This document shows, piece by piece, positions 5,998 to 56,058 of a DNA stretch of 64,000 bases; the stretch's first letter is position 1, and every line of letters starts with the position of its first letter. A model generated the notes under the pieces. That model ran no database searches. It was not told the origin of the DNA and worked only from the letters and a program-made list of their open reading frames with translations. Origin of the DNA: Parcubacteria group bacterium LiPW_41 (GTDB lineage: Bacteria; Patescibacteriota; Minisyncoccia; UBA6257; GWB1-50-10); assembly GCA_007375535.1 (NCBI GenBank), contig VMEM01000001.1, positions 39,462 to 103,461 on the forward strand, given 5' to 3'. Both the position numbers and the translations under genes were made by a program.

Positions 5998-6267
5998 GCG
6001 CTCGGATACCCTTCGAGTCCTAAAATACAAATACAAAAAATCGCTCTTCGAGCGATATTTTGTATTTGTGCCCTCGTGAGGACTTTCCTCACCCGTCGCT
6101 TTCGCTCCTCCTTTGGAATCCTGGGTTCCTCGCTTCCGCTCATCCTCGACAAGCTCGGATTCGCTTTTCGCATTCGCGCGCTCGGATACCCTTCGAGTCC
6201 TAAAAATACAAATACAAAAAATCGCTCTTCGAGCGATATTTTGTATTTGTGCCCTCGTGAGGACTCG
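5998..6267 (-). repeat. tRNA-Arg trailer element, containing two 87-bp near-identical direct repeats
   Basis: The direct repeats are at 5998-6084 and 6178-6267. Each carries the last 17 nt of tRNA-Arg, a hairpin ACAAATACAAAA…TTTTGTATTTGT and an antisense T-arm (AGGACTCGAAGG). The 93-bp GC-rich spacer contains GAGCGAAAGCGACGG. Confidence 0.8.
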
Positions 6268-9059: not shown

Positions 9060-9286
9060 AAAGTTGCTTCGCTTTGAAATAATTAAAAAATGTACATTTT
9101 TTAATATGTAGTCCCAAGGGGAATCCTTTCAACTAATCACTCGCCGTCGCTCGTGATTGTTTCAAGCCTGGGCTCACGGTGTATTCTACTGAATACACAT
9201 CGCTCCGCCCTTCGTTTCCCCACACGAAACAAGAAATTGTTTCGTTTTGGGATAATTAAAAAAATCTAAAAATTTTTTTAATCAGT
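9060..9286 (-). repeat. tRNA-Glu trailer element
   Basis: The distal end carries TAGTCCCAAGGGGAATC (9109-9125), a copy of the tRNA-Glu 3' end, with similar A/T hairpin flanks. The core contains GGGGAAACG, the hairpins GTGTATTC/GAATACAC and CGAAACAA/TTGTTTCG, and GAGCGACGGCGAG. Confidence 0.75.
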
Positions 9287-9571: not shown

Positions 9572-10075
9572 ATGTCGAAGAGAAAGTGGACTCAAAAACA
9601 ACTCGAAGAAGCAATTAATTCTTCAACAAGCAATCGACAGGTTTTAAAAAAGTTGGGATTAAAGGAGGCGGGAGGAAATTATAGCCAAATAAAAAAATAC
9701 TCAAAAGAATTTAAAATCGATACTAGCCATTTCAAAGGTCAAGCGTGGAACAAAGGAAAGAAGGGACTAGGGAAGCCAAGAATCCCTTTATCAGAAATTT
9801 TGGTAGAAAATAGTAATTTCCAAAGTTTTAAATTAAAAAAAAGGTTATTTGCAGAAAAATTAAAATCTGAGTATTGTGAACACTGTGGGTGGGCAAAAAA
9901 ATCAAAAGATGGTAGGATTCCTCTTGAGCTCGATCATATAAATGGAAGAAGAAACGACAACAGAATAGAGAACCTTCGTATTCTTTGTCCAAATTGCCAC
10001 TCATTACAACCAACACATAGAGGTAAAAACATAAAGACTGCCCAGATGGCGGAACGGTATACGCGCAACACTTAA
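9572..10075 (+). CDS. HNH homing-endonuclease-like protein
   Basis: HNH motif CEHCGW…LELDHINGRRNDNRIENLRILCPNCHSL. The last 36 nt of the ORF overlap tRNA-Leu. Confidence 0.75.
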   Translation: MSKRKWTQKQLEEAINSSTSNRQVLKKLGLKEAGGNYSQIKKYSKEFKIDTSHFKGQAWNKGKKGLGKPRIPLSEILVENSNFQSFKLKKRLFAEKLKSEYCEHCGWAKKSKDGRIPLELDHINGRRNDNRIENLRILCPNCHSLQPTHRGKNIKTAQMAERYTRNT

Positions 10076-10122: not shown

Positions 10123-10350
10123 CAAATTCTACAACACCCTTCATGGGTGTTGTAGAATTTATTCATCAAGGGATTCGAAGGATATTCGAGCGCCCGAATG
10201 GGAAGAGTGAGTAAAATGAACGAAAGCGAGAAACCAAGGCTTCGGAGGAGGCACGAGAGTGCCGGAGGAGAAGAAATCCAACGTCGACCTACCAGTGAAT
10301 AAACCAAACACAAAACAATACCGCCAGTCCTTGGACTGGCGGTATTTTTA
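10123..10350 (+). repeat. tRNA-Leu trailer: terminator hairpin, a divergent GC-rich structured element, and a second terminator
   Basis: Hairpin TTCTACAACACCC/GGGTGTTGTAGAA, then the antisense T-arm AAGGGATTCGAAGG, GAACGAAAGCGAG, the hairpin GGCAC-GAGA-GTGCC, then ACCGCCAGTCC/GGACTGGCGGT with a T-run. Confidence 0.6.
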
Positions 10351-11190: not shown

Positions 11191-11372
11191 TGATGTGTGG
11201 ATTCGAACCGCAGGCTCCCTATTTTCTTAGTGAGCGAAGCGAGCTTAGAAAATAGCAGTGTCGCACATTGTGCGACCCGCAGTCATTATTTGAGAACGTA
11301 GGTCTCGAGTTCAGCAGAACGAGAGGAGAATCACTAACTTGTAAGCTCATTCATGCGATATATAATTGCTAG
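11186..11372 (+). repeat. Degenerate trailer-element copy after tRNA-Ser(UGA)
   Basis: Begins with the antisense T-arm GTGGATTCGAACC. Contains GTGAGCGAAGCGAGC, the hairpin GTCGCAC att GTGCGAC, and GGTCTCGAG. Confidence 0.45.
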
Positions 11373-14660: not shown

Positions 14661-14782
14661 TATTCAATAATAGAAGAACCTGTGAATTTAGCCAACGAAA
14701 TAGGTTGTGGTGTTCTATCAGGTGTAAAACCCTAAAAAAGTAAAATGACCTACTGGGATTGCACAGATGCTCATTGTTTTTG

Positions 14783-14853
14783 TGGACCTACGGGGAGTCG
14801 AACCCCGACTTAGCGCATGCCATGCGCTTATTCTACCATTGAATTATAGGCCC
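14783..14853 (-). tRNA. tRNA-Ala(GGC)
   Basis: G3:U70 in the acceptor (GGGCCTA/TAGGTCC), anticodon loop ATGGCAT and T-loop GGTTCGACTCC. Confidence 0.8.
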
Positions 14854-15530
14854 ATATTTTTTCTTAATATTTCAAAGATAACTAAAAATTCATTAAAAAT
14901 ATTAGCAGAAAAATAATCTATTCGACACACGCCTTTATAATTCATTTTTCGTGATTTTTTATTAATAGAACGAGGATCAACTCGCGCTTTATAAAAACAA
15001 GATAAAGGAATATTAGTCAGCTTCGACCAAAAAATTTCCAACTTTTCGATGTTTTGATCATCCCTACACTGTAGGGTACACCTAAACTTACTCTCGTCAA
15101 CCTCATAACAACTCCTTAAAAGATTTAGAAATAATTTAATAATTAATGGATCAGAGTTGCCAATGGTAATACTCCCCTTTTTTGTTTTAGATCCCTCAGC
15201 TAAATAAAGCATAGCAAGAGTAATTTTTTTTGTTTTTTTGTCGTTTAATTCACCAATAACCCACTTATTTTCATTTAATAAATTTTCTAGGTATTTTTTT
15301 CTTTTCTCTTTTTTTACTTCCAGTGCTTTCTGTCTCGCCACCTTCAAATCTTTTACTCGTTTTGTTTCTAATTTTTGTTTTTGAAGATTTGAAAGTTCTA
15401 TACCTTTTAACCAAAATGAAATCGTACTTTTTGGAATGTTGGAACCAAGTGCTCTATTAATTTGCAGAAATGAATAACCCTTTTTTCTCAGGGCTATCAC
15501 ACGTTCTCTCATATTTTTTTGGGTGCTCAC
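14844..15530 (-). CDS. LAGLIDADG-family homing-endonuclease-like protein with an N-terminal HTH
   Basis: Single LAGLIDADG motif LAMLYLAEGSK. Its stop overlaps the 5' end of tRNA-Ala by 10 nt. Confidence 0.7.
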   Translation of the reverse strand: MSTQKNMRERVIALRKKGYSFLQINRALGSNIPKSTISFWLKGIELSNLQKQKLETKRVKDLKVARQKALEVKKEKRKKYLENLLNENKWVIGELNDKKTKKITLAMLYLAEGSKTKKGSITIGNSDPLIIKLFLNLLRSCYEVDESKFRCTLQCRDDQNIEKLEIFWSKLTNIPLSCFYKARVDPRSINKKSRKMNYKGVCRIDYFSANIFNEFLVIFEILRKNMGL

Positions 15531-15569: not shown

Positions 15570-15755
15570 TTTGTGGGCGATAAGGAATCGAACGTCGTCT
15601 CATCAGAATGAGACTCCCACGAACCCAGCGGTTCGTGCGCTCCGCCACTGGGAAACTCCCGTTTCCCCGACCCCTTTCCCAGTTCGAGTCCTGTATATCA
15701 CAAGATATAAAAACAACGCATTTGCTTTAGAAATAGTGCATTGTTTTTATCTATG
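15570..15755 (-). repeat. tRNA-Val(GAC) trailer element
   Basis: In tRNA orientation: a terminator hairpin, the antisense T-arm ATACAGGACTCGAAC, GGGAAAGGGGTCGGGGAAACGGGAGTTTCCC, the hairpins CACGAACC/GGTTCGTG and GTCTCAT/ATGAGAC, and a sense end GTTCGATTCCTTATCGCCCAC. Confidence 0.75.
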
Positions 15756-15829
15756 TGGGCGATACAGGACTCGAACCTGTGACCTTTACAATGTCAATGT
15801 AACGCTCTAACCAGCTGAGCTAATCGCCC
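15756..15829 (-). tRNA. tRNA-Val(GAC)
   Basis: Acceptor GGGCGAT, anticodon loop TTGACAT and T-loop GGTTCGAGTCC. Confidence 0.8.
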
Positions 15830-16155: not shown

Positions 16156-16224
16156 ATAATACCTGAGACATAAAAAAATACAAATCTTTACTCTAATCTA
16201 AGATTAATCTATAAATAGACAGAA

Positions 16225-16296
16225 GCCCTTGTAGTTCAACGGATAGAACAGTGCCGTCCTAAGGCGAAGATGGGAGTTCGATTCTCTCCAAGGGCA
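16225..16296 (+). tRNA. tRNA-Arg(CCU)
   Basis: Acceptor GCCCTTG/CAAGGGC, anticodon loop GTCCTAA and T-loop GTTCGATTC. Confidence 0.75.
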
Positions 16297-16300
16297 CATA

Positions 16301-16387
16301 GGAGGGGTGGCTGAGTGGTCGAAGGCACACGACTCGAAATCGTGCAGGGGTGAAAGCCCCTCGAGAGTTCAAATCTCTCCCCCTCCG
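16301..16387 (+). tRNA. tRNA-Ser(CGA), type II
   Basis: Acceptor GGAGGGG/CCCCTCC, anticodon loop CTCGAAA, a long variable arm and discriminator G. Confidence 0.8.
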
Positions 16388-16590
16388 CTAATATCAAAAC
16401 AATACACTTCATGTGTATTGTTTTATATTCGGAGAGATTTAAACGGGAAAGGGGTCGGGAAAACGGAAGTTTTCCCGTGGTGGAAGTACTGAAACCGCAA
16501 GGTGTCAGAAAATTTCGTCTGCGAAATTTTGTTCAATTCCCTCCCCCTCCACAAACAAAAAACACCATACAAAGTGGTGTTTTTAATTTT
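16388..16590 (+). repeat. tRNA-Ser(CGA) trailer element
   Basis: A terminator hairpin, the antisense T-arm GGAGAGATTTAAAC, GGGAAAGGGGTCGGGAAAACGGAAGTTTTCCCG, TGGTGGAAG, the hairpin CTGAAACC-GCAA-GGTGTCAG, a pseudo-anticodon arm ATTTCG-TCTG-CGAAAT, the sense end GTTCAATTCCCTCCCCCTCCAC, and a second terminator. Confidence 0.8.
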
Positions 16591-55670: not shown

Positions 55671-55743
55671 GGGCCAGTAGCTTAGTGGCTAAAGCACCGA
55701 GCTTATACCTCGGCGACCGAAGGTTCGAGTCCTTCCTGGCCCA
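55671..55743 (+). tRNA. tRNA-Ile, anticodon UAU as read
   Basis: Acceptor GGGCCAG/CTGGCCC and anticodon stem-loop CCGAG-CTTATAC-CTCGG. Confidence 0.7.
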
Positions 55744-55769
55744 CAGAACGGGCATTACAAACAAAATAT

Positions 55770-55841: not shown

Positions 55842-56058
55842 CACAATAAAACATCATATTTCTCAATATGATGTTTTTGTATGAGGGGATTGAACAAGAA
55901 GGGGTGTTGGGGAAACGTTTGTTTCCCCATGGAGGAAGTATTGAAACCGAGTGGTTTCAAAGCGCAGTCTCGCCCGCAAGACGAGCAGTGAAATTTCCCC
56001 TCAACGCCCACACAAAAACAAAAACATCCTTTTCTAGGATGTTTTTGTTTTCTATTTT
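55842..56058 (+). repeat. tRNA-Val(UAC) trailer element
   Basis: Terminator AAAACATCATAT/ATATGATGTTTT, the perfect antisense T-arm GAGGGGATTGAAC, GGGGAAACGTTTGTTTCCCC, TGGAGGAAG, the hairpin TTGAAACC-GAGT-GGTTTCAA, GTCTCG…CGAG, a 20-nt copy of the tRNA 3' end TCCCCTCAACGCCCACACAA (56004-56023), and a second similar terminator. Confidence 0.8.

Follow-up and report, generated by a model that had tools for sequence, protein, structure and literature searches.

Duplications of 16-20 nt that run from the T-loop to the 3' end are reportedly the classic footprint of integrase insertion into tRNA genes. The Patescibacteria (CPR) element that follows tRNA-Val(GAC) in the present DNA (the window, that is, the whole stretch of 64,000 nucleotides that was analysed) shares with integrase-mediated tRNA-gene elements the T-loop target, the direct repeat of the 3' end, the functional tRNA and the possibility of tandem integration. 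However, it measures about 120 nt, has no integrase and carries an extra, inverted copy of its target, and its core, which covaries as an RNA would, is used at dozens of unrelated targets, including the termini of protein genes. Other features recall the omega-RNAs (TnpB) of IS200/IS605 elements and the PATEs, namely a structured scaffold, a 3' extension identical to the flanking DNA, abundant protein-less copies and hairpin-rich ends; omega-RNA guides arise as a scaffold followed by flanking DNA (PMC13565253). In contrast, IS200/IS605 elements generate neither a target duplication nor an inverted target copy (PMC13565253), and they need a TAM together with TnpA/TnpB, whereas the CPR element preserves the target beside the insertion.

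As in R2 non-LTR retrotransposons and group I/II introns, very conserved sites in essential genes are occupied, the ends of the predicted RNA pair with or carry the target (IGS/EBS, co-transcribed flanks), a precise junction is combined with a variable one, and template jumps form a further likeness. Unlike these systems, the CPR element has no ORF, is about 120 nt long, shows no intron core in Rfam searches and duplicates the end of a gene without interrupting it, and splicing is not required. The group I intron family RF00028 matches no core of the type found at Val(GAC) (type A), and the host tRNA is uninterrupted; the sole RF00028 hit, in L081, comes from a distinct intron located in the anticodon loop. 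Introns of this group and position are also the subject of the sole paper found on insertions in Patescibacteria tRNAs, and group II introns are reported there to be absent from Patescibacteria (PMC13011429).

MITEs are likewise small, multicopy and non-autonomous with flanking inverted and direct repeats, but in the CPR element the repeats are derived from the target, the duplication is long, variable and directional, and the interior is conserved as RNA structure. Free-standing homing endonuclease genes, which also occur next to tRNAs in the genomes compared here, resemble it in their conserved gene-terminus sites, short gene-end duplications and patchy distribution, but they carry a protein gene and have no conserved RNA core. 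Compared with retron ncRNA, there is no reverse transcriptase near the CPR copies, and the arms are target-derived instead of being element-encoded a1/a2 repeats. Compared with the IS110 bridge/seek RNA, there is no DEDD recombinase, and the segments that match the target lie at the ends and are complementary to each other instead of forming internal loops. No description of the element was found in the full-text literature, and the class, which is centred on an RNA and copies the end of the adjoining gene, appears to be undescribed.

The reading towards which we lean is that the Val(GAC) element is one insertion of a non-autonomous Patescibacteria mobile family of about 110-150 nt, which encodes a structured RNA and possesses ends copied from its target, with an RNA-mediated route favoured. 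Confidence that a mobile family encoding a structured RNA is present is moderate to high, and confidence in any particular insertion mechanism is low. On the strand of the core, the order of parts is the same throughout: the gene end left intact (copy 1), a spacer of 5-190 nt, the inverted copy, the core and the direct copy (copy 2). At this locus, copy 1 is the target itself, the segment of tRNA-Val(GAC) from the T-loop to the 3' end. All of the pieces given for the element in the preliminary description were found at 15572-15748 on the minus strand (Table 1), in a window that contains 13 tRNAs and ordinary housekeeping genes.

Table 1. Parts of the Val(GAC) element, its host gene and the two sister copies in the window; helices (P) and joining regions (J) are those of the predicted RNA.
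Feature	Position	Strand	Basis
tRNA-Val(GAC), host gene	15755..15829	-	ARAGORN; Rfam tRNA 73.5 bits
A/T-rich 12-bp hairpin followed by a T run, AAAAACAATGCA...TGCGTTGTTTTT, terminator-like	15709..15748	-	sequence
P1 5' strand ("antisense T-arm"), ATACAGGACTCGAAC	15682..15696	-	exact reverse complement of tRNA
J1, purine-rich conserved joining region, (U)GGGAAAGGGGUC	15669..15681	-	(near-)invariant columns, 111 cores
P2 hairpin, GGGGAAAC-GGGA-GUUUCCC, GNRA loop	15650..15668	-	covariation; loop statistics
J2, conserved joining region, AGUGGCGGAGCG; family consensus GUGGYGGAAnUA	15638..15649	-	111-core alignment
P3 hairpin, CACGAACC-GCUG-GGUUCGUG	15618..15637	-	4/8 pairs compensatory family-wide; RNAalifold
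P4 hairpin, GUCUCAU-UCUG-AUGAGAC	15597..15614	-	sequence; variants in relatives
P1 3' strand, GUUCGAUUCCUUAU, T-loop-like start of copy 2, pairs with 15682-15696	15580..15593	-	
Exact direct repeat of tRNA 3' end, ATCGCCCACA	15572..15581	-	empty versus occupied alignment
Type-A sister copy after tRNA-Ser(CGA)	16430..16552	+	R1 84.9 bits
Type-A sister copy after tRNA-Val(TAC)	55883..56006	+	R1 74.1 bits

The terminator-like hairpin belongs to the inserted segment and is missing from the empty site of the relative L010; a terminator scan missed it because its loop is 16 nt. The antisense T-arm covers the T-loop, the 3' strand of the T-stem and 2 nt more of tRNA-Val(GAC), being the exact reverse complement of GTTCGAGTCCTGTAT in the tRNA. 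The three hairpins of the core are present as GGGGAAAC-GGGA-GTTTCCC, CACGAACC-GCTG-GGTTCGTG and GTCTCAT-TCTG-ATGAGAC, of which the last two had been read earlier; the TCTG loop does recur in the Ser(CGA) copy, as AAAATTTCG-TCTG-CGAAATTTT. The length and sequence of P4 differ across the family, with a G-U wobble in L012 and a UCCG loop in L006. After the three hairpins of the Val(GAC) copy come GTTCGATTCCTTAT and then CGCCCACA, the final 10 nt of which are the repeat of the tRNA 3' end. The 3' end of the element as a whole is GTTCGATTCCTTATCGCCCACA, and its identity with the tRNA is limited to ATCGCCCACA, in agreement with the earlier remark that only the last ~10 nt match; this segment would form the single-stranded 3' tail of the predicted RNA and runs on into the original downstream flank. 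A promoter-like site was sought directly upstream of the copy, and none was found there.

The RNA predicted from these parts reads 5'-P1a / J1 GGGAAAGGGGUC / P2 (GNRA loop) / J2 GUGGYGGAA / P3 / P4 / GAC(G) / P1b-tail-3'. In the family structure, the Val(GAC) copy has a folding energy of -44.1 kcal/mol, and P1 is predicted with compensatory changes by RNAalifold. In the minimum-free-energy fold of this copy (-50.2 vs -44.1 kcal/mol), J1, not the antisense arm, closes the junction. The complementarity of P1 could be a by-product of the way in which the arms are generated and not a selected RNA helix. A permutation test of P1 strength discriminates weakly because T-loops are common to tRNAs.

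Within the window, the layout recurs 3' of the last tRNA in most tRNA units, consisting of a terminator-like hairpin, the tRNA's own antisense T-loop/T-stem, a structured core of ~100 nt and the last 10-20 nt of the tRNA in the sense orientation. A covariance model built from 111 related cores (R1) finds exactly three copies, after tRNA-Val(GAC) (76.5 bits), tRNA-Ser(CGA) and tRNA-Val(TAC), with E values of 1e-21 to 1e-25. These are the type-A copies; those at Glu(TTC), Arg(GCG), Leu(TAA) and Ser(TGA) have other cores, and some copies, e.g. at Ser(TGA) and Leu(TAA), are decayed. The Val(TAC) copy carries a 20-nt exact repeat of the tRNA end. The 15-mer GGGAAAGGGGTCGGG, described beforehand as common to the Val(GAC) and Ser(CGA) copies, is exact and occurs in the 64 kb only at 15666-15680 (-) and 16445-16459 (+), and the bit scores of R1 show that the likeness of the two copies spans the whole element and not the 15-mer alone. 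The proposed three-copy grouping by GGGGAAACG stands as regards the kinship of Val(GAC) and Ser, but the Glu(TTC) copy has another core type; there, GGGGAAACG is the antisense T-loop, and the group therefore mixes two types. Furthermore, the Ser(CGA) element differs at 2 nt from that of a 96%-identical strain, the ends of which match the tRNA exactly at both positions, so the copy in the window has begun to decay there. Between the two strains, this copy has diverged by ~1%, compared with ~4% in its flanks.

Syntenic loci were taken from five relatives (IF-2 identity 65-91%), among which L006 was found by an IF-2 synteny scan of genome contigs. The nearest relative of the window in the genome collection is a Candidatus Paceibacterota MAG. 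One ORF in the window has 100% identity to protein LiPW41_58 of "Parcubacteria group bacterium LiPW_41". The Val(GAC) site is occupied by a type-A element in the window, L006 and L012 and by another core type in L015, and it is empty in L010, in which tRNA-Val(GAC) is followed after 8 nt by tRNA-Ala; the search for an empty site suggested in the preliminary description thus succeeded. An element follows tRNA-Glu in the window but not in L006. Conversely, tRNA-Cys is empty in the window and followed by two tandem units in L006, where the 3' half of the Cys core is ~97% identical to the Glu element of the window and both ends are Cys-specific. In the case of tRNA-Leu(TAA) in L012, a type-A core ~90% identical to the Ser(CGA) copy is provided with Leu-specific arms, and tRNA-Ser(CGA) in L010 has a type-B core. 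The T-stem of tRNA-Val in L012 is changed (ACTGG/CCAGT) and the antisense arm matches it with ACTGG; in the window, both read ACAGG. Tandem or truncated units are common (Arg(GCG) in the window, Arg and Cys in L006, and L066), and tandem arrays are expected if insertion regenerates the target. The two duplicated terminator hairpins in L014 are exact reverse complements of each other, a pattern that we interpret as the mark left by intrastrand template switching. Alleles with and without the element, its presence at different loci and multiple copies are thus all found, and the earlier impression of a repeated, mobile-looking unit beside tRNAs is borne out by these alleles and by further copies.

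A pattern derived from the type-A cores and scanned over metagenomes returned at least 120 loci, ~110 of them genuine, so that at least 100 further copies are known from metagenomes; from among the matches listed, 111 distinct cores were aligned. The common plan of the core is (R)GGRA-AAGGGGUC, P2 with a tetraloop, GUGGYGGAA-nUA, P3 with a tetraloop, GGAG/GCGCAG, a variable P4 and GAC(G). In P2 and P3, where covariation is informative at the free positions only because the retrieval pattern fixes other core positions, 98.1% of the cells are paired (111 cores) and 205 are compensatory, against 54.8 +/- 6.6 in column shuffles, none of 500 of which reaches 205. The pairing collapses when the partner columns of P2/P3 are slid as a control. 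Simultaneously, G-U pairs outnumber A-C pairs in these helices by 12 to 4, and the P2 loop is mostly GNRA (GGGA, GGAA, GGUA or other), and both features therefore support an RNA read in the tRNA sense. Run on 22 full-length copies, RNAalifold arrives at P1, P2 and P3 independently, and 13 of the 22 pairs that it predicts have compensatory changes. Compensatory changes, strand-specific G-U pairs and stable tetraloops together point to the constant internal core being a structured RNA.

No family in Rfam 15 matches any copy, either at the gathering threshold over the whole window or at E <=1-5 over 11 kb of the window and 12 metagenome loci; the searches returned only tRNAs, chance miRNA-like matches and the unrelated group I intron in L081. 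No match was obtained in Rfam 15 to the hammerhead, twister, twister-sister, pistol, hatchet, HDV-like or hairpin ribozymes. A hammerhead ribozyme was considered for the Val(GAC) copy, in which CUGAUGAG (CUGAUGA) and GAAAC occur, and was rejected, as these motifs are unconserved: L006 has CCGAUGAG (CCGAUGA) instead, the Ser copy is without CUGAUGA and GAAAC, and there is no Rfam hit. Among 2.9 M viral contigs, no true match to the type-A or type-C pattern was found, apart from one chance match to the type-A pattern, and a phage origin is ruled out by this lack of true matches.

The arms of the element follow the host gene. The 5' strand of P1 is an inverted copy of the target and the 3' strand opens the direct copy that reaches the gene end, and at tRNA sites both track the T-loop variant of the host (ACTCGAAC, ATTCGAAC, AATTGAAC, ATTTGAAC). 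The sole reason why the arms are alike at tRNA sites is that T-loops are conserved; the arms at trxB (CGCGGCGTATGCCGC/GCGGCATACACCGCG) and rnhA (CCCGGGCCG/CGGCCCGGG) are wholly unlike them. Accordingly, the view of the ends as an inverted repeat followed by a locus-specific tail holds, but AGGAMTCGAAC is not a terminal inverted repeat intrinsic to the element, the arms being copies of the target. Among the matches listed, about two-thirds of the copies follow a tRNA, covering at least 17 amino-acid specificities, and about one-third lie at the termini of protein genes. The targets in protein genes include the 5' coding end of lepA-type GTPases (the region coding AHIDHGKST), the N-termini of trxB (GGGPAG...AAIYAAR), rnhA (GNPGPAG) and rplK, the last codons at the 3' end of rpsI (PQ[F/W][S/Q]KR-stop), the C-terminal peptide of ftsZ (DIPTFLRR...) and likewise the C-terminus of a Mur ligase. 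No shared motif is present 5' of the targets. The target gene may lie on either strand, with the tail in the sense orientation for tRNA, rpsI and ftsZ and antisense for lepA, trxB and rnhA; this variable orientation favours a logic at the DNA level over an antisense regulator.

For 50 of 110 elements, at least 12 nt of the tail recur exactly in the 420 nt upstream, compared with 0 of 219 permuted controls. With this heuristic, about half of the elements show no clean upstream copy, which may reflect decay, contig ends or, in 4-6 cases, a position directly 5' of a whole tRNA. The antisense arm pairs better with the gene copy in 13 elements and with the downstream copy in 11. The duplications vary from 10 to more than 50 nt and are directional, extending to or past the gene end. 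Direct repeats stand at both junctions and the host gene is regenerated, with ATCGCCCACA at Val(GAC) and 16-20 nt at Glu, Val(TAC) and Cys. The duplications enter the trailer and the terminator and never show CCA, and their source is therefore DNA or a precursor, not mature tRNA. On the same grounds, an origin of the 3' copy from a primer-binding site or a mature tRNA is excluded.

No enzyme is linked to the element. Pfam scans of ~30 ORFs in the window returned housekeeping genes only, and clustering of 809 neighbouring ORFs from the ~110 metagenome loci showed only housekeeping genes to recur; an integrase, transposase, reverse transcriptase, TnpB/IscB/TnpA or DEDD recombinase was found neither in the window scans nor near the ~110 copies. 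An ORF of 225 aa with HTH and LAGLIDADG-like parts starts ~40 nt after the Val(GAC) element and is absent from L006, L010 and L012. In other CPR genomes, this ORF is invariably adjacent to the 5' end of tRNA-Ala(GGC) or overlaps it, and type-A cores are missing from its surroundings. The ORF thus represents a separate, homing-endonuclease-like insertion, and it was rejected as a partner of the element. In L006/L010, a duplication of 14 nt of the tRNA-Ser 5' end accompanies a GIY-YIG insertion.

In the RNA-mediated route that we favour, the RNA would be transcribed in the tRNA sense, and insertion would be aimed at short, highly conserved sequences (X) located 15-70 nt from a gene terminus, such as the T-loop of tRNAs and motifs at protein termini. 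At its 3' end, the core passes into X at a precise point, and the 5' junction is variable. The core RNA may be joined to X or co-transcribed with it and then copied into DNA, through an intermediate that would be single-stranded, probably RNA, with the core continuous with X. A polymerase or reverse transcriptase that has come to the 5' end of the compact core could fold back onto the adjacent X and thereby write the inverted arm, a step that may be likened to classical snap-back synthesis. The first 8-17 nt of X are repeated in inverted form at the 5' edge of the core, and P1 is therefore built from the target on both strands. Meanwhile, the stretch from X to the gene end, and in copy 2 often beyond it, is duplicated, which leaves the gene intact; how far the duplication extends would be set by the distance to a second-strand break or crossover. 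The enzyme would act in trans and be encoded away from the element. Candidate routes include a ribozyme-type attack by the 3'-OH of the core, reverse transcription of a read-through RNA, and a DNA-only path via single-stranded DNA; as an alternative, a circular copy undergoing a single crossover within X and its flank would give the same product and also arrays. It is possible, and put forward only tentatively, that the element is programmable by RNA alone, the four-way-junction RNA itself being the active agent (as a ribozyme, or as a template or guide that a host enzyme requires), with its 3' end joined to a conserved sequence and the target copies written during copying.

An unlikely alternative is a miniature integrative element or att scar mobilised in trans by a tyrosine or serine integrase, in which the duplicated end would be the attL/attR block and the core a set of protein-binding sites. 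The T-loop-to-3'-end duplications fit the integrase footprint, and a circle with a single crossover in X and its flank gives the order U-X-D1-element-X-D1 as well as arrays. However, no integrase is found in the window or near the ~110 copies, one core family serves dozens of unrelated targets in contrast to the fixed att specificity of integrases, the inverted target copy is unexplained, and covariation with G-U pairs and GNRA loops favours RNA over protein-binding DNA.

Improbable to a similar degree is an orphan guide of the omega-RNA type, that is, a scaffold with a flank-derived 3' guide for an unlinked TnpB, IscB or nuclease-dead relative, carried on non-autonomous units like those of IS200/IS605. 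A conserved structured scaffold does stand directly before 15-45 nt identical to the adjacent DNA, the non-autonomous copies are many, and the target range appears programmable. Against this, no TnpB, IscB or TnpA lies beside any copy and no Rfam motif of the IS605 type is matched; P1 ties up the first 8-17 nt of the putative guide, and there is no common TAM-like motif 5' of the targets. The target is, moreover, duplicated and intact, so a nuclease guided by the tail would cut its own locus. A tail-guided nuclease seems unlikely, because the intact target persists beside every insertion.

We give little credence to a cis-acting RNA that benefits the host (in 3'-end processing, termination, insulation, stability or regulation of the adjacent gene), was spread by duplication and is kept by selection. 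The core is extremely conserved across many lineages, the Ser(CGA) copy has changed less than its flanks (~1% vs ~4%), the elements sit at the ends of highly expressed genes, and some copies lie exactly 5' of a tRNA, from which RNase P could release them. However, presence or absence, and even the core type, vary at the same locus among close relatives, decayed, tandem and truncated units exist, and the orientation to the neighbour is inconstant, the tail being sense at tRNA and rpsI and antisense at lepA, trxB and rnhA.

The terminal-inverted-repeat view of the preliminary description corresponds to a MITE that has such repeats of its own (AGGAMTCGAAC), is mobilised by a DNA transposase and bears the tRNA-like tail as target-site duplication, and this reading is very improbable: small, multicopy elements with inverted repeats flanking the core at tRNA sites, direct repeats flanking the insertion and an empty site would suit it, but the arms copy each target, with nothing common between tRNA and protein-gene sites and differences among tRNA, trxB, rnhA, rpsI, lepA and ftsZ sites, the duplication of 10 to more than 50 bp has no fixed length and in every case extends outward to the gene end, the conserved part is internal, covarying and GNRA-looped as expected for a structured RNA, and no transposase gene is found in the window scans or near the ~110 copies.

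If the reading of a mobile family with target-copied ends is correct, bacteria of the CPR, with their tiny genomes and scarcity of classical transposons, are home to an abundant selfish element made up essentially of one folded RNA plus a copy of its landing site. Such an element would harmlessly target the most conserved stretches of essential genes, namely tRNA T-loops, the P-loop coding region of GTPases and the C-termini of FtsZ and S9, which would be a new strategy in the repertoire of mobile DNA/RNA. It would also explain assembly breaks and the odd "tRNA 3' fragments" in CPR genomes. The family would form a large, well-covarying group of RNAs absent from Rfam. The scaffold is compact, and its targeting logic, if RNA-based, could interest biotechnology. 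If the RNA-only reading were true, it would represent a natural form of scarless, gene-preserving insertion, with sites specified by the copying of sequence rather than by a protein.

The window elements with cores other than type A, the core found after tRNA-Val(GAC), tRNA-Ser(CGA), and tRNA-Val(TAC), share the type-A architecture of a structured RNA core between target-derived arms, with unrelated core sequences (types B and D and a type-C-like one). Further matches to the type-C pattern lie in three syntenic loci of relatives (L012, L014, and L015), and a scan of 2.9 million viral contigs gave no match to it.

Features at tRNA genes in the window and in related or metagenome loci
Feature	Locus	Position	Strand	Remark
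Type B element after tRNA-Arg(GCG)	window	6068-6201	-	partial second unit at 5998-6067
Type-C-like element after tRNA-Glu(TTC)	window	9108-9221	-	
HNH-endonuclease ORF, 167 aa	window	9572-10075	+	directly upstream of tRNA-Leu(TAA), overlaps its start at 10040
Type B element after tRNA-Leu(TAA)	window	10170-10300	+	3' tRNA copy decayed
Type D element after tRNA-Ser(TGA)	window	11199-11345	+	3' tRNA copy decayed
tRNA-Ala(GGC)	window	14782-14853		5' end overlapped by HTH/LAGLIDADG-like ORF
HTH/LAGLIDADG-like ORF, 222-228 aa	window	14844-15530	-	N-terminal HTH and LAGLIDADG-like motif (LYLAEGSK...NSDP)
tRNA-Ile (TAT)	window	55671-55744	+	
Small GIY-YIG ORF	L006	1852-2166		between tRNA-Arg(CCT) and tRNA-Ser(CGA)
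Small GIY-YIG ORF	L010	5844-6158		between tRNA-Arg(CCT) and tRNA-Ser(CGA)
Val(GAC) element	L006	2716-2952	+	
Region downstream of tRNA-Arg(GCG)	L014	7755-7960		
Group I intron	L081	42-264	+	in tRNA anticodon loop

In the Val(GAC) element of the syntenic locus L006, an insertion of ~80 nt stands in place of P2, and since its hairpins resemble those of type-D cores, modular exchange between core types is suggested. Downstream of tRNA-Arg(GCG) in L014, terminator hairpins follow both tRNA-end copies, and the one past the second copy, caccctgcttgcagagtg, reads exactly as the reverse complement of the one past the first, cactctgcaagcagggtg; the hairpin underwent inversion in the course of duplication.

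Endonuclease-like genes also occupy tRNA starts. The ORF at tRNA-Ala(GGC) is missing in the syntenic loci L006, L010, and L012, has more than 800 homologues in CPR genomes, and appears to be a homing endonuclease gene of the free-standing, site-specific kind; in L138, L144, and L147, from other CPR genomes, such a gene abuts or overlaps tRNA-Ala(GGC) in every case. The HNH ORF is a second endonuclease-like gene at a tRNA 5' end in the window. In addition, where the GIY-YIG ORF is inserted in L006 and L010, 14-16 nt from the 5' end of tRNA-Ser are duplicated (AGGAGGGGTGGCTG); in the window and in L012, the gap between tRNA-Arg(CCT) and tRNA-Ser(CGA) is 3 nt.

Genomically encoded TAT anticodons for AUA are uncommon among bacteria; the window carries one, in tRNA-Ile. 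In the metagenome locus L081, a type-A element lies downstream of a tRNA that bears a group I intron, which matches RF00028 at 30 bits, short of the gathering score. This intron is consistent with published Patescibacteria tRNA introns and has no relation to the element.

Four related-strain contigs (L002-L005) end at window 16176-16509, inside or beside the tRNA-Arg/Ser and element region, and the repeated elements probably disrupt short-read assembly of these genomes. Meanwhile, six metagenome loci (L030, L045, L046, L053, L057, and L060) carry a complete tRNA gene directly 3' of a type-A core (...GACG|tRNA +1), with neither a duplication nor a clear P1. At such a junction, RNase P cleavage would free the core with a defined 3'-OH.
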